Below are positions 13,697 to 35,764 of a stretch of DNA of 64,000 bases, piece by piece; position 1 is the stretch's first letter, and every line of letters starts with the position of its first letter. Below the pieces are notes generated by a model that did not search any database, was not told the DNA's origin, and saw nothing but the letters and a program-made list of their open reading frames with translations. The position numbers were made by a program, and so were the translations under genes. Source of the DNA: Fistulifera solaris (taxonomy: Eukaryota); NCBI GenBank assembly GCA_030295235.1, contig AP026162.1, forward strand, positions 2,356,001-2,420,000, read 5' to 3'.

Positions 13697-14863
13697 CTAG
13701 CAATGAACATCACACGCATCCAAGGCAATCGACACTTTGTCTTTCGAACGTTCACTTTCCTTCAGCGCCTTTAAAATTAATTTGGTTTGCAACGACACGG
13801 ACGTAATTTCGCGCGCCAAATGCGTCGCCGGACAATCTGTCCACCCGTGTTTTTGGATCGATTGACAGAGCGTCCGGAACCGACGCCACATCATGACGGC
13901 GGCACTCGGACCGCCGGGGACATCAATCGCTTCCCCACGCATCATATCAAAGTCTTTGCCATTTTGCGGTGTCCGATCGTAGACCCGATAGTTGGCCAAT
14001 CCGTCCGGATGCGGAATCACAAAATCATTCAAAGTCGCGTACCGATTCTTCGAGCGCACTTCCATAATTTGACGCGTGGGGGTATGTGAATACGCCAAGC
14101 GACAATCCAAGGTCACATCGTCCGTGAACCACACGCGACACGTTGCCGCAGTGGCTTGTCCGGTCACTGGATGCCGTTCGACTTTTTGAACTTGTGCCGC
14201 CGTGGGGCGGACGCCTTTGCGGGCCCGCAAAAACATGAGCGCCGCGAGAAGAGCACATGACCGGGCCAGACGACGAATCACGCATTGTCCTTCTTGGGGA
14301 GGATCTTGCACGCCCAAGACACCGACATCGTCCATGTGAATGCTCAGTAAGACATCAATCGACTCGATTTTTCCAAAATCTTCTTCGTACAAGACGCAAT
14401 CTAAAAATGTTTGCACGCGATGTTGATTCTGGAACATGGTCGGGAATTGCAGAAATCGTTGATATTGTTTGGCATTCAGGAGTTGAATTCGAAAGTCATC
14501 AATGTACGTCGAAATGGGATCATCCAGTAAGACATGCAACGAGGCTTGCAAAGCCGGTAATACAAATTCCGTTTGCTGTAAGGTCGGTACGACAATATAA
14601 ACGGCATCAACTTCGTTCGATTGCAGCATTTCGGTGTATCCTCCGCGCGTCAATATCGCCGTCGGCGGAATGCCGTGCGAGTCGCGCCATGGCTCGGGAT
14701 CTTCATCGATGGATACGACGTAGGTGACAATCGCATTCGAAATCGGACTGGCAATCGCACGCACCGATGCTGCGGGCAGAGTTCGATCTTTGACAACAAT
14801 CCCGATGCGAAACGGCTTTACGTCCGACAGAGAGGCCATTTGCGGATTGGCATTGTCTTTCAT
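13697..14863 (-). CDS. Gfo/Idh/MocA-family oxidoreductase-like protein
   Basis: 388-aa ORF with RIGIVV, GYTEMLQSNEVDAVYIVVPT and HVLLDDPIS (degenerate HVLxEKP). Confidence 0.7.
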   Translation of the reverse strand: MKDNANPQMASLSDVKPFRIGIVVKDRTLPAASVRAIASPISNAIVTYVVSIDEDPEPWRDSHGIPPTAILTRGGYTEMLQSNEVDAVYIVVPTLQQTEFVLPALQASLHVLLDDPISTYIDDFRIQLLNAKQYQRFLQFPTMFQNQHRVQTFLDCVLYEEDFGKIESIDVLLSIHMDDVGVLGVQDPPQEGQCVIRRLARSCALLAALMFLRARKGVRPTAAQVQKVERHPVTGQATAATCRVWFTDDVTLDCRLAYSHTPTRQIMEVRSKNRYATLNDFVIPHPDGLANYRVYDRTPQNGKDFDMMRGEAIDVPGGPSAAVMMWRRFRTLCQSIQKHGWTDCPATHLAREITSVSLQTKLILKALKESERSKDKVSIALDACDVHC

Positions 14864-15517
14864 GTTGATTGTGCTTCTTCGTTAGTGAAGTAACGACTCG
14901 TTAATAAAGAGAATAATAGAAAGGGAGTCAATGGTTGTTGTTATGAAGGAAAACACGGAGTAATTATTTATTTGTCAAGTCAAAACGAACTCGTCTGCAC
15001 CGCCAAAACAAAACGTGCAACTGCAAAAAACAAAAGCCGCGTGACGACGAGGAGAACAGTGGTGTCAAGCTTTTAGTATGATAACAAAAAGTACCGATGT
15101 CGCTTATGTACATCCCCAAAACGAGAACACTTTCGCTGTTATAGCGTCTCAAATTTGTGTGACACTGCAAACAGTAAGGAACCTTCAACAACTTTCCGTT
15201 GGAAGCCGGAGGGAGAAGTGAATACCGAATGGACAAACAATCAAAAATTGTATTGTGTAAACTGTACTAGGACACGCGGAGTAGCGCTCCGCCGTTTCAT
15301 TTTTTCGTTCAAACCCAGTTGCAACGTTTCAACAAAACACTTCGAAGGAACGGAATTCCCACATGCAGAGGACGCTGCATGGCATTGCTGCGCAAGAAAG
15401 AAAGACGAGGAGAGATGCTGCATGCTTCTCCTTGAATGCAGGAGTGAGATCAGTAACTCATTGAAAGTAGTACGACACGAACGATCGATTGATTGAAGCA
15501 ACACAAACGAAGGAGAA

Positions 15518-17274: not shown

Positions 17275-17348
17275 GCAGGAATGGTCTAGTTGGTCATGAC
17301 GCACCCTTCACACGGGTGAGGTCGGGCGTTCGAATCGCCCTTCTTGTA
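17275..17348 (+). tRNA. tRNA-Val (anticodon CAC)
   Basis: Cloverleaf with acceptor GCAGGAA/TTCTTGT, D-arm TGGTCTAGTTGGTCATGAC, anticodon arm CACCC-TTCACAC-GGGTG and T-arm GGGCG-TTCGAAT-CGCCC. It is followed by a TTTTT Pol III terminator. Confidence 0.93.
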
Positions 17349-17820
17349 CTCTTTTTCTCACTATCCCGATTGAGGGGTCAGCTTAATGTTCCTCTTTTCA
17401 TCTTTCCCTCCTGCTGTCTTTTCTTTTGCTTTTGCAATACAATCCATCCGGTGCCGCTTCTTGTGCATCTTTTCATTTCAACATTTTTTTGCTTCGCGAG
17501 GACATCCACCAGGTTTAAGTTCGTGTGCATCTTATTAATGTTTTCATTCGCTTTCAGTCGCTTTCTTTTGACGGCAATCATCGTGTTATTTTTGGAGCGT
17601 ATCAGGATGACTGCTGAGCTCTGAGAATGTGCGAATGGGCCCTCTTTCTGATCCTAAAAAGCAAGAGTCATCAGGTTTTGGGCCACTTAGTCCGAGATGG
17701 AGACTATTAAGGTTAGAAATATTTTGCAGCACGGTCTTCCCTTCGTCCGCAAACATCAAAACATTTCTTTCTGCGCTTCTACATCGTCGTCCTACAGTGA
17801 GATCGAAACGAATGCAACAC

Positions 17821-24037: not shown

Positions 24038-25012
24038 CTAAAAGGCACAGCGAGCCTTGGTAACGGCGTTTTTGACCGAGCACATGGTGCGCGAGAACCA
24101 GCTTCCCGTCTTGGAGCAGTCGTTCAATTTCAAGCAGTTGGGAGCCTGTGCACCGATCTCCTCCCTTACTGGTGCAAACCTGCGTTCCTTGAGCGTTGTA
24201 AAAGATGGCGTTGCAGCCACCGCAATAATCATCAATGCAGGAAACGTACTCCTCATCGCACGAAGTTGCTTCGCACGGTGCTTCGAAGCAGCGAACAAAA
24301 GGAGCATCATCGGGACAATCCTTGCCGCAAATTCTCTGACAAACCTTTTCTGCGTTGCATGTGATGCGCCCAGTGCATTCAATGACGGGGTAGATGTTGG
24401 ATGGGTTGAAGCAATCAACGTCTGCGCCGCAGGAGCCCAATTCGAGGCAAGTTCCATCCGCACAGTACCCGCCCTCTTTGCAATCGGCATCCGACTTGCA
24501 AATGTCGTCTGCACCGGTGTGTCCGCGTCCTCCTCAACAAGCGAAGGGACAGGCGTACTCTCATCTCCCGCCCAGCCGCCGGGGAGGTCGCCCTTAGAAT
24601 CGAAGCAAAGAGCATTGCATCCACCGCAATAGTAATCGACACAAGTAGTGGAAGCGGGGCACAGGGTAACGGAGCACGGAGAAGCCAAGCATTCGGCAAC
24701 TGGCTGGTCCTTGGGGCACACGTCAGAGCTGCATTGAACGCCGCACTGATTGTTCACACAGTCGACATATCCCACACAAAGGATCGAGTTGTAGACGTTG
24801 GAAGGGTTCAAGCAATCCGACAGATCACGACAAAAGCCGAATTCTTGACACAATCCACCGGAGCAGTACTGCGAACCGGCACGGCAGTCGTCATCTGAGC
24901 TGCACTCAGCAGCCAGAGAGGAACGGAGGAATCTCGTGGCCGACGATGACTCGGCTCGTGAGGTCGCCATCAACAAGAAGGAACTGGCGAGAACTTTCAG
25001 AATGAGCTTCAT
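24038..25012 (-). CDS. Secreted cysteine-rich repeat protein A (2 modules; frameshifts)
   Basis: Signal peptide and two ~110-aa Cys-rich modules containing DC(L/F)NPSN and CxDxYCGGCNA. The C-terminal tail is WFSRTMCSVKNAVTKARCAF. Confidence 0.8.
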   Translation of the reverse strand: MKLILKVLASSFLLMATSRAESSSATRFLRSSLAAECSSDDDCRAGSQYCSGGLCQEFGFCRDLSDCLNPSNVYNSILCVGYVDCVNNQCGVQCSSDVCPKDQPVAECLASPCSVTLCPASTTCVDYYCGGCNALCFDSKGDLPGGWAGDESTPVPSLVEEDADTPVQTTFASRMPIAKRAGTVRMELASNWAPAAQTLIASTHPTSTPSLNALGASHATQKRFVREFAARIVPMMLLLFAASKHRAKQLRAMRSTFPALMIIAVAATPSFTTLKERRFAPVREEIGAQAPNCLKLNDCSKTGSWFSRTMCSVKNAVTKARCAF

Positions 25013-25124
25013 GATTTTTTACTTTTCTTTGTTCGAATAGGAAATGAATTTTGTGAGCAGATCCATTGATCAAGATTTTGTTGGGTTGTTGCAAGTTGCA
25101 ATCAATCTTGTCAACTATTATCGT

Positions 25125-25148
25125 CAAACGTGCTCCTCCACTCGGAAG
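25125..25148. promoter_or_regulatory. Conserved upstream motif CAAACGTGCTC-N6-TCGGAA (gene A)
   Basis: The same composite motif lies 100-160 bp upstream of all three Cys-rich paralogues, while the surrounding sequence is dissimilar. Confidence 0.5.
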
Positions 25149-25899
25149 AGAAGCATTTTTGCCGTACTTCATAGCGTACTGTAGTTCATTCGTCGCAGAA
25201 CTCATGACTCAAAAATACGTAACGTTAGCAAGCTATGTTGTACCCCTTTGGGCTAGCAAGACCGAAGTGCACGTTTGCTGCTTCGGCATCACATTTCGAT
25301 CGTGTGACATCTATGGTTCGCTTTGTAGTTGTGTCGTAATGCATTACGTTTTCTGGCATATGACTAATGACTACGACCACCCTACGATTGCCGGAGACAG
25401 TATCTGCGTGTCACCTGTCAGCTGATCACTGATCACACCTTTTTGACGAACATGTCTTCCTCTAACAATGTTTGCGGAATAGTTGTCGCCTTAAATCGAT
25501 ATTTTGTTCATGCTTCAGTAGCAACGCTTTGCGTGGAAAAGTATGCACGTCTGAGCAGCTTAAAACTTGGCAAATGTCTGTGATTTGATCATCGTGTATT
25601 CTATCAAATAAACAACTTTGAACTCAATCACGTCTGGTCTTCTTGTTGGTTCTCTTTCTTTTGCGTCAGCAGTAGTTAAAAACTCGAGTTACTTGTTCTA
25701 ATAAGGAGCCTCTGGACTTCAAGCACGTTGCTCGCTGAAAGCACTAGATCTACAGAATAGGTCTTTATCACAAAAAGGTGACTATGAACAAAAGGCAGAT
25801 TTCCTTTCACTTCCGTACTTTATTGATCTTAATTTGATTGATGGCTTGCCAAAGATATGTAATGATTATTCAGAACCTTTTCAAGTGCATGGAACCCCA

Positions 25900-26760
25900 T
25901 CAGTCACTACCTTCCTTCGTGGTGCAAATTTGGCTTCCTTGAGCATCGAAGAAAATGCCTTTGCATTCGCCGCAATAATCGTAGGCGCAGGAAACGTAAT
26001 CCTCGTCGCACGGCGTTTCCTCACAAATCGAAGGGCCACAGGCGACGTTTAGCAAGTCATTGGGACAAAACGGGCCGCAAATCGTCTTACAAATCTTTTC
26101 TTCCGTGCACATGATGTGGCCAGAGCATTCGACTTTGAAAAAGATGTTGGATGGATTGAAACAATCGACCTGTGTCTCACAACTTCCCATTTCGAGACAT
26201 ACTCCATCCGCACAGTATTCATTCTCGCCACACGCATCATCGGAGCTACAACTAGTCTCATCATTGCTCGGAGGATCCACATCATTCTCCTGAGGTGCAG
26301 GATCAAGCACTCCGTCACCTTCCACCGACCCACAGGCCAGATCCCCCTTGGGGTCGAAAAAGAGAGCATTGCAGCCACCACAGTAGTAGTCAACACAGGT
26401 ACTGGGAGATTCGCACGTAGACACCGAGCATGGAGAGGCGAAGCAATCGGCGACGGGCTGACCGTCGGGACACTCGTCGGTGCTGCATTGCCTACGGCAC
26501 TGATTGTCGACACAATCGATGTAGCCATCACAACGGGCAGTGCTGTACTCGTTCGAAGGATTCAAGCAGTCGGCGAGATCACGGCAGAAACCGAATTTCT
26601 TACAAACTCCTCCAGAGCAATACTCTTTCCCGGCACGGCAGTCATCGTCCGAGGTGCATTCGAAATCGTTCGAAATGGGCTTCGACTTTTTGCCATTCAG
26701 TTTGGCATCGCACGACGCGATCAAAATGAAGGCAAGAAGGACGCGAAGAAGGATATTCAT
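25900..26760 (-). CDS. Secreted cysteine-rich repeat protein B (2 modules)
   Basis: Intact 286-aa ORF with signal peptide MNILLRVLLAFILIASCDA and two Cys-rich modules homologous to proteins A and C. Confidence 0.85.
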   Translation of the reverse strand: MNILLRVLLAFILIASCDAKLNGKKSKPISNDFECTSDDDCRAGKEYCSGGVCKKFGFCRDLADCLNPSNEYSTARCDGYIDCVDNQCRRQCSTDECPDGQPVADCFASPCSVSTCESPSTCVDYYCGGCNALFFDPKGDLACGSVEGDGVLDPAPQENDVDPPSNDETSCSSDDACGENEYCADGVCLEMGSCETQVDCFNPSNIFFKVECSGHIMCTEEKICKTICGPFCPNDLLNVACGPSICEETPCDEDYVSCAYDYCGECKGIFFDAQGSQICTTKEGSD

Positions 26761-26855
26761 GATGCTGTTGTTGTTTGCGATTAGGGAGGTGTTGCAAATT
26801 GTGATGTGAGATTAAAACAACAACACACTTTTGTGATGCATCTTCGGAACATTTT

Positions 26856-26878
26856 CAAACGTGCTCATGATTCGGAAC
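26856..26878. promoter_or_regulatory. Conserved upstream motif CAAACGTGCTC-N5-TCGGAA (gene B)
   Basis: Shared with 25125 and 32404. Confidence 0.5.
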
Positions 26879-27154
26879 CGGAACAAAACCTATTTTGTCG
26901 TTATGTTCATGGTATACCTGACGACGGACAAACGACTCGGAACTTGACGCTGCTGCACAGCGTCACAGTTCATTTCGCTCGTGAGCCGGCTAGATTGAAA
27001 ATGGCAGCTTCTCCAACACACTTGTATAGCAATCATTTAGTCGTTCAAGTCCTAAAAGACAGCTCTGGGCAATATAAGGTTTTGTCGCATGTGATCCTGT
27101 GATTCGTGTTTCCTTGTAATTCAGTAGTGACATTCGAAACCTTTCCTCTTGATT

Positions 27155-28065: not shown

Positions 28066-28705
28066 AATAAATCAATGATTAAAATGAGGATAAGAAAGAA
28101 CGGAGTATTGTAGACTCTATGCCTTTTTGCTTACAATGAAAGATGCGAGTGAAACGAGTGAAAAGTGCACCGCAAAAATTTGCGGTGCGCGCCAAAAGTG
28201 CGCGCGCACGACGAAGAATCTTTCCTCGTGATTGGAACCTAATTTCCAGTCATGTCACTCACAGGATGGGTCTATAGTCAAAATTAGCAAGCGATCACTG
28301 AAAAGCTTTTCAGTTCAATAATTCGACATGATGAATAGAAACCTAATTACTGAGCTTGTCAATCATCCTAGAACGTTTTTTGATGGCCTTACCAGGTATT
28401 GTACTGGTATAATCGCTCTCCCTTCCTTATTTTTCTCGTGACCGCAATCCAGCCGTGGCAAGGATCCAAGTACATTTGGGGCTATAGTAGATCTCAATAA
28501 TTGGCCACGCTGCTTCGCATTCATTTCCATCGATCTGACTCTATTCTCGCGCTGTTGCATTACCAGGTATTGATGTCAAAGTTTTTTTTATTTAAAAAAA
28601 GAAATAATAATATTCAAAGCCCTTCTCTCCCTATCTAGTTGATCCTCCCTCTTGTCATTATTTGCATTCGAGTCTCGGAGTTCGTTTGGGAATTTCGAAA
28701 GTTTC

Positions 28706-29790
28706 ATGTCGCTGAAAAGAACCGCACCTTGGTTCCTCTTTCTTTGCTGCCTCGTCTCCTGCGTTCAATCTTCTTTATCATCATATTCTGTTTCCGCTTC
28801 CGTCCCCATGGCGCTCCGTAAAACTAGGGCCGGTCGAACATCGTCTATCGTCCTTCCGCGAGGAGGAGGACAACAGCAGCTGCGACACATGGCAACGACC
28901 TTGCATGGTAGTATCTTTTGGAAATCGCAAGGCATCTTGTTGGGCGCCAATTTCCTCGGTTATCTTCTTTCGTAAGTGATTCTTTCGATATTTGATGTGC
29001 ATGTGTCGCTGCACGAGAGGTCTAAAATTGCGCCCGAATGAATCTCTTTTGTTGGATTGACAGTGGTGTATCCTCGTATCACTATCACGTGGACCTGTTG
29101 GGTACGGGTGCGTTTGCGGCGGTCGCGGCATTCACCTTCCGTCGTTCCCCCGTGAGCAGTCTTGCCGTTATGCTGTGGAGTATCAAATTGGCCAGTTTCT
29201 TGTTGTTTCGTGTCGTGCATCACGGTGGACGCGATAGTCGCTTGAATGACACTTTGGCGGATCCCGTTTCGGCGAGTGGGTTTTGGATCATTTCGTGGCT
29301 TTGGGGTGTTTTGGTATCTCTCCCGCATTGTTTGGGGGCCGCATCGGTGACGGCGAGATCCAATGCGTGGCAAAACGCCGGCCTCGTGCTCTTTGCGGTA
29401 GGCTGGATGATGGAAACAGTGGCCGATTATCAAAAGTGGATGTTCAAACAACAATACGCTTCTTCAACTGTGCCCTACTGCAATGTCGGATTGTGGTCGT
29501 GGTCGCAACATCCCAATTGGTGCGGAAATCTCTTGCTTTGGTTCGGGATATGGATGATGAATGCTCCTTGTCTAATCGCGCCGCAAGCGAAACACATTGT
29601 TGCAAAATACGGACGTTTATTACTCTCGTGTCTCGGACCATTGTTTTTGTTTGCGCTCTTTCATGGTCAAGCGACCGGCTGGATCTTGCCGTCGGCATTG
29701 GAAGCCACGAAACAGAAGTACGGGTACGGTACGGATTCGGAGTATACGAATTATGTTAATCGGACGCCCCTTTTGTTTCCATGGGTTTGA
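28706..29790 (+). CDS. DUF1295 / steroid 5-alpha-reductase-like membrane protein, 2 exons
   Basis: Intron about 28972-29063, WSIKLASFLLFRV..GRDSRL, ETVADYQKW and NVGLWSWSQHPNWCGNLLLWFG. Confidence 0.85.
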
Positions 29791-30130: not shown

Positions 30131-32247
30131 CTAAAAGGCACAACGCGCTTTCTTGAAAGCTTTCTTCACAGCGCAGGTGGAGCGTGAGAACCAGCTACCG
30201 TCTGCGGGGCATGCCATTTTCTTGGAGCAATCAGAGCCAGTATCATCGGGCGCATCCGTGCTGGCGCAGACTTCCTTTCCTTCGGCGTTGAAAAGATGGA
30301 GTTGCACGCGCCGCAGTAGTTGTCGATGCAGGAAACGTAGTCTTCGTCGCACGGATTGGCTTCGCAAGGAGCTTCGAAGCAGCGGACAAGTGGTTCATTG
30401 TTCGGGCAACTGCTGCCACAAATGGTTCTGCAGGTGCCTTTTCTGCTGCATTTCACGTAGCCGATACAGTCGAGCATTGGAAACATGTTGGATGGATTGA
30501 AGCAGTCGACATCCTCGTTACACGAGCCGAATTCAAGACATGTTCCAGCTGCACAGTATTCGCCATCGCTGCAATCCGCATCGGAGCCGCAAGTGCCATC
30601 GCTCACTGGAGTGTCTGGGTCTTCTACTGGAAAGCCAGGTGCATTTCCTGTTGGATCGATGCAGATCGCATTGCATCCACCACAATAGTAGTCGACACAA
30701 ACAGAGGGAGCCAGGCATGTCGTGGCAATGCAGGGTGGGAACTCGCATTCGGTGAAAGGCTCGCCTTTGGGACAGTCGCTGTTGCTGCATTCTCGGATGC
30801 ATTGGTTGTCCACACAATCAATGTATCCGACGCACCGGACCGTTCCGTATTCGTTGGAGGGGTTCAGGCAGTCGGTGAGGTCGCGGCACGTTCCGTGGTC
30901 TCGACAGACTCCACCGGCACAGAATTGATCAACGCAATCGTCATCGCTCGAGCAAGTCTGTTCAGGAGATACTCCCGTACTGTCGTCCGGGCCGCAAACC
31001 TGACGCCCCGCCGGATCGAAATAAAGAGGAGAGCATCCATCACAGTCATTCAAAACACAGCGAGCTTCGTCACCACATTCTTTCGGATCACATGTGGCTT
31101 CACCGCATGGAACTGGATCGCCACCATTCTCAGGGCACTCGCCGCCACAGACACGGCCGCAGAACCCTTCTTGGCAAAGAACAGGACCCGTGCAGAAGAT
31201 GGTGCTGTAGATGTTGGACGGGTTATAGCAGTCGAAGTCAGACGAACAAGCGCCGAAATTGCGACATTCACCCTGGGAGCAGTACTGGTCAGTGGTGTTA
31301 CAATCTGAATCGAATTCACACAAAGTAGTCTCTGATTCAGGCAGTTCCAAAAGCGAGGGCTCGGGCGTACTGCCATCAATCATAAAGCCGGGTACGTCTC
31401 CAGTAGGATCGAAGCAGAGGGCATGGCATCCACCACAAACGTAGTCCACACACATAGCGGGAGCCATGCAAGTCGTGGCTATACAGGGTGGGAACTCGCA
31501 TTCGGCAAGAGGCTGATCCTCAGGGCATTCACTGTCACTGCATTGTCGAGTGCACTGGTTGTCGACACAGTCAATGTAGCCAACGCAAAGAATCGTGTTG
31601 TACTCGTTCGAAGGATTCAAGCAATCAACCAAGTCGCGGCACGTTCCATGATCTTGACAGACCCCACCGGCGCAGAACTGGTCCGTGCAATCATCGTCAC
31701 TTGAGCATGTCCCCTGAGGCTCAGGGACTTCTTCCGTCCTTTCGTCTTCCGGGGGCGTGGGTTCACCCGAACCGTCACCGTCGACCGAGCCGCAAGCAAG
31801 GTCTCCTTTGGGATCGAAAAAGAGAGCATTGCATCCTCCACAGTAATAGTCGACACAGGTAGTCGGAGAAATGCAGGTCGAGACTGAGCACGGTGATGCC
31901 GCGCAGCGGACGGATGGCTCGCCGCCAGGGCATATGTCGGGGCCACAAATGGTAGTGCATTGGTTATCCACACAGTCCGTGTAACCAAGGCAGAGAATGG
32001 AGTTGTACATGTTCGAAGGATTTAAACAGTCAGATAGAGAGCGGCAAAACCCAAACTCCTGGCACAGTCCACCAGAGCAATACTGCGAATCAGCCTGACA
32101 GTCATCGTCCGAGGCACATTCCAAGGCCAGGGAAATCTCCTGCAGTTTTTTCTTATCCTTGTTATTCTTCTTCTTGTCCTTCGACTTGGCATCGCACGAT
32201 GCCGAGAGCAAGAGAGAGGCGACAAAGAGACGAAGAAGGATGTTCAT
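30131..32247 (-). CDS. Secreted cysteine-rich repeat protein C (5 modules; frameshift near 30295)
   Basis: Signal peptide, Lys-rich KSKDKKKNNKDKKK segment and five tandem Cys-rich modules. The tail WFSRSTCAVKKAFKKARCAF is in the shifted frame. Confidence 0.85.
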
Positions 32248-32403
32248 GGTAGATGTTTATTGTAGTGCTTTGCTTTCTTATTATTTGGTAAAGTGAAGGT
32301 ATTCGTAAATTTTGTGAGAACTACAAAACAGCGACACCTTCGCTTTCGCTTCGACCTTATTGGCAGTCGATCGTGTGAATCTCTAATTACATCTAGCAAG
32401 ATT

Positions 32404-32427
32404 CAAACGTGCACCGTTATTCGGAAG
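32404..32427. promoter_or_regulatory. Conserved upstream motif CAAACGTGCAC-N6-TCGGAA (gene C)
   Basis: Shared with 25125 and 26856. Confidence 0.5.
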
Positions 32428-32810
32428 TAGAATATTATTGAGAAGAAGAACGAAGTCCGTCTCTACTTTTTCACACACAGTAGACCATGACAATGACTCA
32501 CTTGATTTCTGAACATCGATCCACACTTAGTATGGGCCCCTATAACCTTAGTCGTTCCTTAAACACAAAACCACAAGACACAGGACATCGTTGTTCGGAG
32601 CGCGCGGAGCATTTCAAGATTCATTCAGCTCATTATCATTTCTCTAGCTACTCCAGCTCCAGCTCTCTAGAAAATAGGGAGATAGACCAGCTAAAAGATT
32701 AGAGATTAGAGACCCCTCTAAGAATGACATACGTAAAAAAAGAATGTCTCACTCTCTCTCTAGATTCTAGATAGTACTAAACTATCTTGTCGCCGGTCGC
32801 TGGCAAGCCA

Positions 32811-33854
32811 GGTGTGCACGTTTCGTCGCCACAGTCGCACTATGTTTTCAAGAAGGTGATATCTTGTTACTTGTTACTCCGTGTGATGTAAGTCGCGCGC
32901 CTTTCCTTTGTTTTATGATATTTTGGCTTTTGTCATCAGCGGCGCGGCGGCTACTGTTTGCTGGAGATCCGCCGGCTGGCTAGGAGTCGTCTAAGAAAGT
33001 TTGACGTGCACGTTTCGATATCACGTTTGCATTTCTTTCTCACCGCTTGATTTGTAATTTGAGTGCCCGTTCAGTCGTTTCTTTGTTTCACTGCCTAATT
33101 TAGTCCCTTGATCCTGTAAAACGGCTACTGTGTGACAGCACTCCATACTTGATCTCAATCGGAAGCTCGGCGCGGTGTGCACGTTTCGTCGCCAGACTCA
33201 CACTTGCCCTGCTTCTTGATTGCTGTTCTTCCAGGCAAGCCATTCTTCGCTCCGTTCGTGTCTTTAATTCTGGATCGTGAGCGACGCCGAACAAATAATA
33301 GCCTGTCTGTCAAGTGTCGAGCAAGCGCACGTTTCGCACTTCTCGACCATTTGAGTGTGGATTGCCGGTCTTGTTGTTCTCCGATCGCTGATCATACAGA
33401 AACGACTGCATATCTTGCAAGACATCCTGCTCGATTAACTATTTTGTTGTGCACGTTTCGTCACCACACAGCCGAGATGCGTGCGATGTTCTTCTTTCGA
33501 TAAAAAAAACCATGTTCTTGCATCCGGTCACGCTTCCAAGCATCTTTTTAAGCCCGCTTAAGTATCCCTTTTGTTTAGTATGCAGTTCAGTTATTCCTTG
33601 TATGCAACAAACAACCAAACACAATTGTGTTCAATTGATGGCCGGCCATCGTCGTCCCGATTTTGACGCAATGAGATATTTTTTGCGCGTTTCTTTCGAT
33701 CGACCATCGGACGTCGGACAAACTGCTACTCCTTAGAACAGAAAAAAAGTCAAGCCAACACGTAGTAAAATAGTCAATTTTCACTGTTTAGTGTTATGTA
33801 GAATCCTTTTGTTTTTTAAGTACACGGTGCACGTTTCAACGTCGTACCGTGTAC
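32811..33854 (+). repeat. Dispersed array of six same-strand GYGCACGTTTCR motifs in an ORF-poor tract
   Basis: Copies start at 32814, 33006, 33177, 33325, 33449 and 33827, with a degenerate TGCGCGTTTC near 33684. The intervening sequences are largely unique. Confidence 0.85.
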
Positions 33855-34042
33855 CGCCTCCCAAATAATCCTCAACCCTTGCAGGAATAATGGGTGGATC
33901 CGATCTGTCGCGCGCCGCAGCTGCAACAATGACAAAATGACGACCATGACGTCGCTCCAAAATCAGGAAAAACACATAATACAAACCTATCCTCTGAAAC
34001 AACTTCTAATCGTGTCAACTTTATTAGTGGCACGCTAATAAT

Positions 34043-35764
34043 ATGAACAAGTCTTCCTTATCGTTCGCCGATGACTGGCCGGTGCAAGCCGACGATCCTC
34101 TCGAGATGGCTTTGGATCAACCTTTTTGCCGACCCACGATGCACTCAAAACGTGTTCCGGAAGCGACATTCATCTCGTCAAGGGTGCTTCGAATCCTTCC
34201 AATCGATGTTTGGCCATTTTACCCGGTTTGCTCGCCTTGCATCCGCCCAGCAACCCGAAAACTACGAGTAATAACGATCATCCTGACACATCCGAAAAAG
34301 ACACTGATGCGAAAACAGCCACCAAACCCGAAGCCATTGCTTTGGGCGAAATGACAGGTTTACTATCGACCGAAACGCCGATGCTGCGAATGGGTTGTAT
34401 GGAACTGCAGGGACAACGCGTGCGGACGTCTTCCAAATTTTTGGTACTGACCTTTCAGCCCAAAAAGAAACGAGTGATTTGCAAGCATATTTTTGATTCC
34501 GTCGTTCTGTTTGGCCAAGCACAAATCAAAGAGGCGCCCCTGGAAGCACCCGAAATACCGCAGCCCTGGGTCCATTACGGTGGATCCGCTCGGGCGGGGA
34601 CCTCGAATGTATCGTGCCGTTTGCCGAGCGTGTCGAAGGCAGCCGCTGTCAAACCCCGTTTGGATCCCATCCAATCGATCACACCCAAAGTACTCGAAAA
34701 GAGAAACAGAATAACGATTCGGATGACGATGATGATTCCGAAAGTGACGGTAGTATTTTGAAGGATGCGAAAGACGAAGACGATTTCCACATGGACATAA
34801 TGCCTTCCTCGTTGGGGCGCCGAGCAAGTTCGCAACGGAAAGTCAAAGCACCTGTCAAGTATTTAGAACGAGAACTGGAATCCAGTGAAAGTGAGAGCGA
34901 AGAAGAAACGCCCGTGAAACGAGCCCCCCGGGCTAGTAAGAAAACCACCGAGTCGATGGCTGAGAAGGACGACGATGTGGTTGTTGTTCCACCGAATAGT
35001 CAGCCATCTTCAACGCCAGCTTCCCGATATCGCGCCAAGGCATCTTCTAATAGATCATCTAGTGATAGTGAAGACGATTATGGTCCCTTGAAACGAGCCG
35101 CTCGAGCTAAGAAGACCTCGGATGGGAAGGTGGATAGAAACGCAGAGAAGGATGTTGTTGTCGTCGTTGAACCACGGCCTTCCTCGACGCGGGCAGCCTC
35201 CCAGCGCCCATCTGTTGCGAAATCAGGTGATAAGATAAACGATAAATCGAAGGCAGCGAGTTCGAAAAAGATTACCGACGAATCATCGGACAAGGAGGAC
35301 GTCGTCGAGGTACTGTCAAGTAATCCGTCAGCCCGCTCCGCGCCCCGCGAAAGCAAAATGCAGCTGACGCTGTTCGAAAGCAAAAGGAAGAATCTAAGGA
35401 TGAGGTTGTTGTAATGGATACTGATAAGTCTACTCGATCTCCACGCAAACGAAAGTCACCACCGGTTACACAATCCCAAGATGACATCGTTGACTTGGAG
35501 AATGATCCAAGCGTAGCAGAGGACAGTGATGACGATTTCGAAGCTCCGATGAAATCAAGTTTGGCAAGAAAGAGCAAAAGCGTGCCTGACTTTAAGGCAC
35601 CGCCAGCGAAACGTCCACGGGCCTCTCCAGGCGTCATGGACTCCTTGGCCTCAACTTCTACGACGCCGACTCGACGTCGTCGACGTACTGGAACTACACC
35701 ATCCCCGTCCAAAAAGGCCGTCTCAACCACTTTCTTTCAATCTTCGAATGACTTTTCATTCTAA
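34043..35764 (+). CDS. RHL1: RHL1-like DNA-binding protein (topoisomerase VI accessory subunit) with long disordered tail; frameshifted
   Basis: SGSDIHLVKG..NRCLAILPGLLA..LGEMTGLLSTETPML..MELQGQRVRTSSKFLVLTFQPKKKRVICKHIFDSVVLF matches the recalled plant RHL1 core (DII..RFLFSFPGLL..IG.L..L.T.NP.L..YLTLQF....V.CDDYFDNMIVF). An acidic/basic low-complexity tail follows. Confidence 0.6.

Follow-up and report, generated by a model that had tools for sequence, protein, structure and literature searches.

The 64-kb stretch of Fistulifera solaris DNA analysed here (the window) holds an ORF-less tract in which one short motif recurs six times on the same strand. The question raised by this locus is whether the copies belong to an RNA or are sites in the DNA. 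The original prediction favored an RNA with many hairpins that would act as a protein sponge or scaffold, and named as its alternative the control of nearby Cys-rich genes by clustered bZIP/bHLH sites with an ACGT core. We found that the alternative is the better fit. The tract is probably a homotypic cluster of putative ACGT-core transcription-factor sites in the divergent promoter of FisN_12Lh089 and FisN_12Lh088.

The divergent intergenic region and its flanking genes

The motif tract occupies a 1,795-bp divergent intergenic region between Cys-rich gene C, whose ATG lies at 32247 on the - strand, and a right-hand gene, whose ATG lies at 34043 on the + strand. The genes that matter for the argument are as follows.

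24038 to 25012, - strand: Cys-rich gene A
25900 to 26760, - strand: Cys-rich gene B
30166 to 32247, - strand: Cys-rich secreted-protein gene C (FisN_12Lh089), promoter toward the tract
34043 to 35764, + strand: right-hand gene (FisN_12Lh088), hypothetical protein, introns present, promoter toward the tract

The product of gene C is 693 amino acids long, with a signal-peptide-like N-terminus followed by five Cys-rich repeats. Its best database match was FisN_12Lh089 of F. solaris, which has an identical N-terminus; overall identity is only 95% because the ORF used here reads through a 3' intron. By tblastn, the family has no members in the window beyond genes A, B, and C, and no remnant of a family gene was found in the tract. 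We found no Pfam family and no Atlas match for the Cys-rich protein, and its top PDB match had an E value of 0.09. The right-hand gene was 100% identical to FisN_12Lh088 over the compared part. It had been called RHL1-like; we found no Pfam family for it, and its database name is just "hypothetical protein." Its homoeologue, FisN_12Hh088, is 81% identical, and a study of homoeolog bias describes F. solaris as allodiploid (PMC5935921). Proteins with 67 to 90% identity point to the existence of close Fistulifera relatives.

The numbers FisN_12Lh088 and FisN_12Lh089 are consecutive, and therefore no annotated protein-coding gene lies between the two. As had been claimed, the tract is without a long ORF: the largest encode 53 to 74 amino acids, with no Pfam match below an E value of 0.2. 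The reported T-richness of the + strand was also borne out between 32760 and 33860 (T, 32.7%; A, 21.3%). The AT skew of this segment is -0.22, about 3 standard deviations off the window mean. Upstream of 23 other ORFs, the skew averaged 0.01 (standard deviation, 0.12), so T-richness is not a general promoter trait.

Contigs from four sequencing runs touch the locus. In one run, a single contig of even depth matches 32100 to 34102 without a difference; this run resembles DNA and does not bear on expression. In that run, no second contig at least 90% alike, as a possible homoeologue might be, falls on the tract, which proves nothing. Two further runs gave contig pieces on gene C only and none on the tract, which has no bearing on expression. 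Nor does a run labeled metagenomic RNA-Seq, described as "probably DNA," which gave an identical 151-nt contig at 33790 to 33940 with a depth of 2.

The motif in the tract and at other promoters

All six predicted + strand copies of GYGCACGTTTCR were present, starting at 32814, 33006, 33177, 33325, 33449, and 33827, with gaps of 192, 171, 148, 124, and 378 nt between successive copies. The 7-nt core CACGTTT is invariant among them. The copies and the further sites with the 8-nt core GCACGTTT are listed below.

32402 to 32417, - strand: seventh copy, inverted, ACGGTGCACGTTTGAA on the - strand, with the gene C ATG 158 nt downstream
32814 to 32825, + strand: copy 1, GTGCACGTTTCG, pattern GYGCACGTTTCR, extended type TGTGCACGTTTCGTCGCCA
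33006 to 33028, + strand: copy 2, GTGCACGTTTCG, with an additional CACGTTT core at 33022 to 33028
33177 to 33188, + strand: copy 3, extended type, 31 nt shared with copy 1 at 90% identity
33325 to 33336, + strand: copy 4, GCGCACGTTTCG, within the GTCGAG/CTCGAC inverted repeat at 33316 to 33347
33449 to 33460, + strand: copy 5, extended type TGTGCACGTTTCGTCACCA
33820 to 33854, + strand: copy 6, GTGCACGTTTCA at 33827 to 33838, within a 35-nt dyad
25126 to 25133, - strand: proximal GCACGTTT, read as GAGCACGTTTGA in the sense of gene A, whose ATG is 114 nt downstream
25267 to 25278, + strand: distal GTGCACGTTTGC upstream of gene A, within a CCGAAG/CTTCGG inverted repeat
26857 to 26864, - strand: proximal GCACGTTT, read as GAGCACGTTTGA in the sense of gene B, whose ATG is 97 nt downstream
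15011 to 15018, - strand: sense-oriented GCACGTTT, 148 nt upstream of an ORF at 13697 to 14863 (- strand)

Several of these had not been noted before. The additional CACGTTT at 33022 lies 13 nt past copy 2. The 12-mer of the inverted seventh copy, at 32403 to 32414, reads GTGCACGTTTGA on the - strand, and its 16-nt context agrees with the copy-6 context in 15 positions. The 8-nt cores upstream of genes A and B and of one further ORF were new as well. Eight CACGTTT cores thus lie between 32405 and 33836. Copy 6 sits between perfect 9-bp dyad arms, and the end of its core is 207 nt from the ATG of the right-hand gene. The longer block said to be common to copies 1, 3, and 5 was there too: copies 1 and 3 agree at 90% over 31 nt, and copy 5 shares 21 to 22 nt with them at 91 to 95%.

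We compared these counts with background. GYGCACGTTTCR occurs 6 times in the window against a mean of 0.06 in dinucleotide-preserving shuffles, and none of 100 shuffles reached 6; the count is well above chance. On both strands together, we found 11 sites for GCACGTTT, whereas Markov models predict 2.6 to 3.3. All 11 fall outside ORFs of at least 150 amino acids, although such ORFs make up 57.7% of the window (P = 0.006 when the sites are counted as 6 independent loci). The canonical G-box/E-box CACGTG was ruled out as the repeated word, as the six copies and the five other core sites all read CACGTT; GCACGTG is itself scarcer in the window than expected (2 sites versus 5.8 to 8.6).

Of the 11 GCACGTTT sites, 7 lie on the + strand. 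The 4 on the - strand are all in sense with a - strand gene, at 97, 114, 148, and 158 nt upstream of its ATG. Altogether, sense-oriented proximal copies stand 97 to 207 nt upstream of the ATG of five genes or ORFs, including all three Cys-rich paralogs. In the tract itself, six copies are + and one is -. The distal copy at 25267 has the same orientation as the six, so that gene A has one distal + strand copy and gene C has six. We found no helical phasing of the six copies at 10, 10.5, or 11 bp.

The upstream regions of the paralogs also share the core. When 300 nt upstream of genes A, B, and C were aligned, a single long invariant run emerged, GCACGTTTGA, which holds GCACGTTT and is preceded by an invariant TTCCG. 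By blastn, 32403 to 32432 matched 25124 to 25152. Between copies 5 and 6, there are two perfect 14-nt palindromes without a spacer (33618 to 33631 and 33637 to 33650); such palindromes suit dimeric DNA-binding proteins better than RNA, in which they give no stable hairpin.

The tract shows three features of a cis-regulatory module: multiple copies beyond chance, recurrence in the promoters of related genes, and occurrence in both orientations. The DNA-site alternative fits these results, as the core is present in all three paralog promoters and, across the window, in both orientations and in noncoding DNA alone. The likely members of the cluster are the six copies, the inverted seventh one (32403), and the second core that follows copy 2 (33022), with GCACGTTT as the common core. 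We propose that a sequence-specific transcription factor would bind the GCACGTTT sites. Because of the ACGT core, this binder may be a bZIP-type dimer; a bHLH protein is a less likely candidate, since the hexamer reads CACGTT, an imperfect E-box, in place of palindromic CACGTG. According to one source, ACGT cores are bound by stramenopile bZIPs and CANNTG by bHLHs (PMC11267843). The multiplicity of sites could raise occupancy and so give strong, cooperative, or switch-like activation of gene C, the largest member of the Cys-rich family. The right-hand gene might be cocontrolled via copy 6, which is proximal to it and mirrors the proximal copy of gene C.

Several observations count against a site cluster. 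The 6-to-1 orientation bias of the tract and its T-rich + strand are not explained by a plain enhancer. Since the 23 other upstream regions have no such skew, a strand-specific process, such as transcription, could act on the tract. The motif falls short of a perfect palindrome, which is less typical of homodimeric bZIP or bHLH sites. A very stable hairpin at copy 6 and a mild tendency of the core toward unpaired positions also count against it. We also looked for GCACGTTT near distant Cys-rich homologues (27 to 53% identity) and found it at 0 of 16 metagenome loci, which offered 11.3 kb of upstream DNA, with most loci having none. This result carries little weight, given how distant the relatives are and how little of their upstream DNA there is.

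Other readings of the tract

The orientation bias and the T-richness keep three other readings alive. The first, which we consider unlikely, is that the copies have no function and are leftovers of short-segment duplication, or the decayed cargo of a mobile element bounded by the repeat at 32763 to 32782 and 33786 to 33805. The 21 to 31 nt shared at 90 to 95% among copies 1, 3, and 5 could mean recent copying, and the bounding repeat, a 20-nt inverted repeat matching at 17 of 20 positions, encloses copies 1 to 5. However, no target-site duplication lies alongside it, and neither the repeat nor the tract has another copy in the 64-kb window, where blastn of the tract against the rest matched the motif copies alone. 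TRF found no tandem array with a period of 120 to 380 nt, just four tiny repeats with periods of 6 to 13 nt. When the inter-motif stretches of the six copies were compared, no pair was similar beyond shuffles (all z < 2.4), and thus the flanks are unrelated beyond the shared 21 to 31 nt. A duplication origin needs fully decayed flanks around a perfect motif, which implies selection. The core also lies within the invariant block common to the three paralog promoters. Because the flanks are unrelated and there is neither an array nor similarity in the window, we regard the motif as a conserved island and not a young repeat.

The second reading, which we consider quite unlikely, is that transcription of the right-hand gene takes in the tract, as a noncoding exon upstream followed by a long intron in the 5' UTR. 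A consensus-like donor, GTAAGT, is found at 32888 to 32893, and a pyrimidine-rich run ends in TGCAG at 33880 to 33884, 159 nt before the ATG. Both signals are short, however, and a stretch of 1.8 kb could contain them by chance. A T-rich sense strand is typical of introns, but a length of about 1 kb would be long for an intron in a diatom. The annotated protein begins at the ATG at 34043 and implies no upstream exon. No spliced contig was seen, and the sole run that spans the whole tract is the DNA-like one. If such an intron existed, which is just as doubtful, the motifs would be intronic or UTR elements acting via the DNA or the pre-mRNA.

The third reading is a + strand long noncoding RNA (lncRNA) over 32.8 to 33.9 kb whose six CACGUUU sites serve as a sponge or scaffold for an RNA-binding protein. 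We consider it very unlikely, although six of the seven tract copies share one strand, that strand is T-rich with a skew some 3 standard deviations from the mean, and the tract has no annotated or detectable protein-coding gene. CsrB/RsmZ and NORAD are protein-sponge RNAs with repeated binding motifs, and the tract resembles them in carrying a short motif every ~120 to 380 nt on one strand of an ORF-less stretch. Unlike them, it is known from DNA alone and has no common hairpin display, excess stability, or covariation, and its motif is also a promoter-proximal DNA word on the other strand.

We examined the structural claims on which an RNA of this kind would depend. The stems named in the original prediction are present: GTCGAG/CTCGAC at 33316 to 33347, GTACACGGT/ACCGTGTAC at 33820 to 33854, and ACGTG/CACGT at 33004/33022. 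Of the 11 core sites, 3 had perfect enclosing stems of at least 6 bp (background, 0.093 per position); this is a mild excess, and the enclosing stems were not confirmed as more than chance. The stem-loop covariation did not hold up. It amounts to a 2-bp helix in which one pair is invariant and the other varies on one side only, so that neither of the two pairs changes on both sides, and 410 of 500 shuffles scored equally high. Since one position is Y and its partner R, three of the four combinations pair regardless. When the six copies were anchored on the motif, RNAalifold found 0 common pairs.

Folding energies likewise failed to bear out an excess of structure. The 721-nt tract was no more stable than its shuffles (z of +0.30 for the + strand and +0.41 for the - strand). 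Local folds of 61 nt around copies 1 to 6 gave z values of +0.47, +0.23, +0.03, -1.45, -0.17, and -6.39; only the copy-6 hairpin, which speaks for an RNA, beat its shuffles (0 of 200 as stable), and the other five lie between -1.45 and +0.47. In a partition-function fold, the probabilities that the core is unpaired were 0.53, 0.76, 0.60, 0.85, 0.17, and 0.31 for copies 1 to 6. The mean of 0.54 compares with a background of 0.41 (standard deviation, 0.21), and four of the six copies are at or above the 70th percentile, which again favors an RNA. Copies 5 and 6, however, are buried in stems. The motif is therefore not consistently displayed in single-stranded hairpin loops, as just the other four copies lean toward an open state. 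Searching the whole window against Rfam gave 0 matches at the gathering score, and the best match in 31500 to 35000 had an E value of 2, at under half its gathering score.

With no consensus structure, compensatory change, excess folding energy, or Rfam match, the tract has none of the defining features of a structured multi-hairpin RNA with covarying stem-loops. Nor does an RNA motif explain why the core also occupies the opposite strand at four promoter positions close to genes. We consider it highly improbable that a + strand lncRNA with six GYGCACGUUUCR sites, some of them in hairpin loops, titrates or scaffolds an RNA-binding protein; this is favored solely by the strand bias (six of seven) and the strong + strand T-richness. 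It would require, no more plausibly, that the promoter-proximal DNA copies be a separate use of the motif or that the same protein act on nascent RNA.

Known promoter elements and the proposed site cluster

Having weighed these readings, we compared the proposed site cluster with promoter elements described in diatoms. The closest is in the METE promoter of Phaeodactylum tricornutum, in which four copies of an enhancer-like motif, GAAGCACGTGCTTC, lie within 674 bp (PMC12538271). The authors of that study describe an enhancer-like effect and suggest that a bHLH or bZIP protein binds the motif (PMC12538271). Both cases involve a diatom and a repeated ACGT-core motif within a few hundred base pairs upstream, and the half-site GCACGT is common to the two. 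The two also differ. GAAGCACGTGCTTC is centered on a G-box, whereas GCACGTTT is nonpalindromic, with CACGTT and not CACGTG. Here, six to eight copies, six of them in the same orientation, extend over 1.4 kb between a divergent gene pair. METE has a reported enhancer-like effect, whereas the cluster described here is known from its sequence.

A second comparison is with the diatom iron-response motif ACACGTGC, which lies about 200 nt before the start codon, with a preferred distance of 150 to 250 nt (PMC3491386). This ACGT-core 8-mer includes ACGTGC, which reads GCACGT on the other strand, and its preferred distance resembles the 97 to 207 nt of the sense-oriented proximal copies here. Unlike our sites, none of which has it, ACACGTGC holds the full CACGTG palindrome. 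The flanking genes here are not known iron-response genes.

In the literature searched, GCACGTT(T) was nowhere described as a cis-element of diatoms or algae; the matches were primers and unrelated papers. One promoter-motif table of the F. solaris homoeolog-bias study has no ACGT-core motif (PMC5935921), and the Aureochrome 1a paper gave no ACGT text.

The motif cluster bears on no long-standing open question. Characterized diatom cis-regulatory elements are few, and we found none described for F. solaris, an oil producer. A 12-nt word that is perfect at six to eight places in a divergent promoter, and common to a tandem Cys-rich family, is a well-defined testable element. It may also serve as a compact block for engineered promoters, a use to which the METE motif has been put in Phaeodactylum.

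Cysteine-rich paralogs and their promoters

We found that the three minus-strand genes A, B, and C (24038-25012, 25900-26760, and 30166-32247) form a tandem family encoding secreted cysteine-rich repeat proteins, whose motifs include DC.NPSN and CVDYYCGGC. These proteins had no Pfam family, no PDB match, and no Atlas match. Relatives with 27 to 53% identity are carried on metagenome contigs, and two matches are labeled Cylindrotheca fusiformis. We also found that the proximal promoters of all three genes have a two-part footprint in common, in the order TTCCG, 7 to 15 variable nucleotides, and G[A/T]GCACGTTTGA. The TTCCG element may be the site of a second factor.

25013-25312, minus strand: proximal promoter region with the footprint, gene A
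26761-27060, minus strand: proximal promoter region with the footprint, gene B
32248-32547, minus strand: proximal promoter region with the footprint, gene C

Arrangement of the motif copies and neighboring palindromes

Among the six same-strand copies of the CACGTTT-core motif, the spacings of copies 1 to 5 (32814-33460) shrink by near-constant steps (192, 171, 148, and 124 nt, with successive differences of 21, 23, and 24 nt). We observed no helical phasing at 10 to 11 bp among the copies in 32814-33460. Between copies 5 and 6 lie two perfect, spacer-less palindromes separated by 5 nt:

33618-33631: 14-nt palindrome, AACACAATTGTGTT
33637-33650: 14-nt palindrome, GATGGCCGGCCATC

A simple calculation puts the number of such palindromes expected in 1.8 kb at about 0.1. 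Both palindromes are candidates for binding by other dimeric DNA-binding proteins. A 20-nt inverted repeat (32763-32782 and 33786-33805, 17/20 complementary) encloses copies 1 to 5; it is without a target-site duplication and has no further copy within the 64-kb window.

Strand composition and other signals

The plus strand of 32751-33750 has an AT skew of -0.22, about 3 standard deviations off the window mean; the one other stretch to match it, 28251-29750, overlaps with a gene for a membrane protein. No general AT skew was seen in the regions upstream of 23 other ORFs.

The 10-nt word [A/T]G[G/T]CAAGCCA occurs three times (32801-32810, 33233-33242, and 33748-33757), once immediately upstream of motif copy 1; these copies may be due to chance. 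A splice-donor-like GTAAGT (32888-32893) and a TGCAG ending a pyrimidine-rich stretch (33880-33884) could border a putative intron of about 1 kb upstream of the right-hand gene, FisN_12Lh088. The sole tRNA gene in the 64-kb window is a plus-strand tRNA-Val (anticodon CAC) at 17275-17349.
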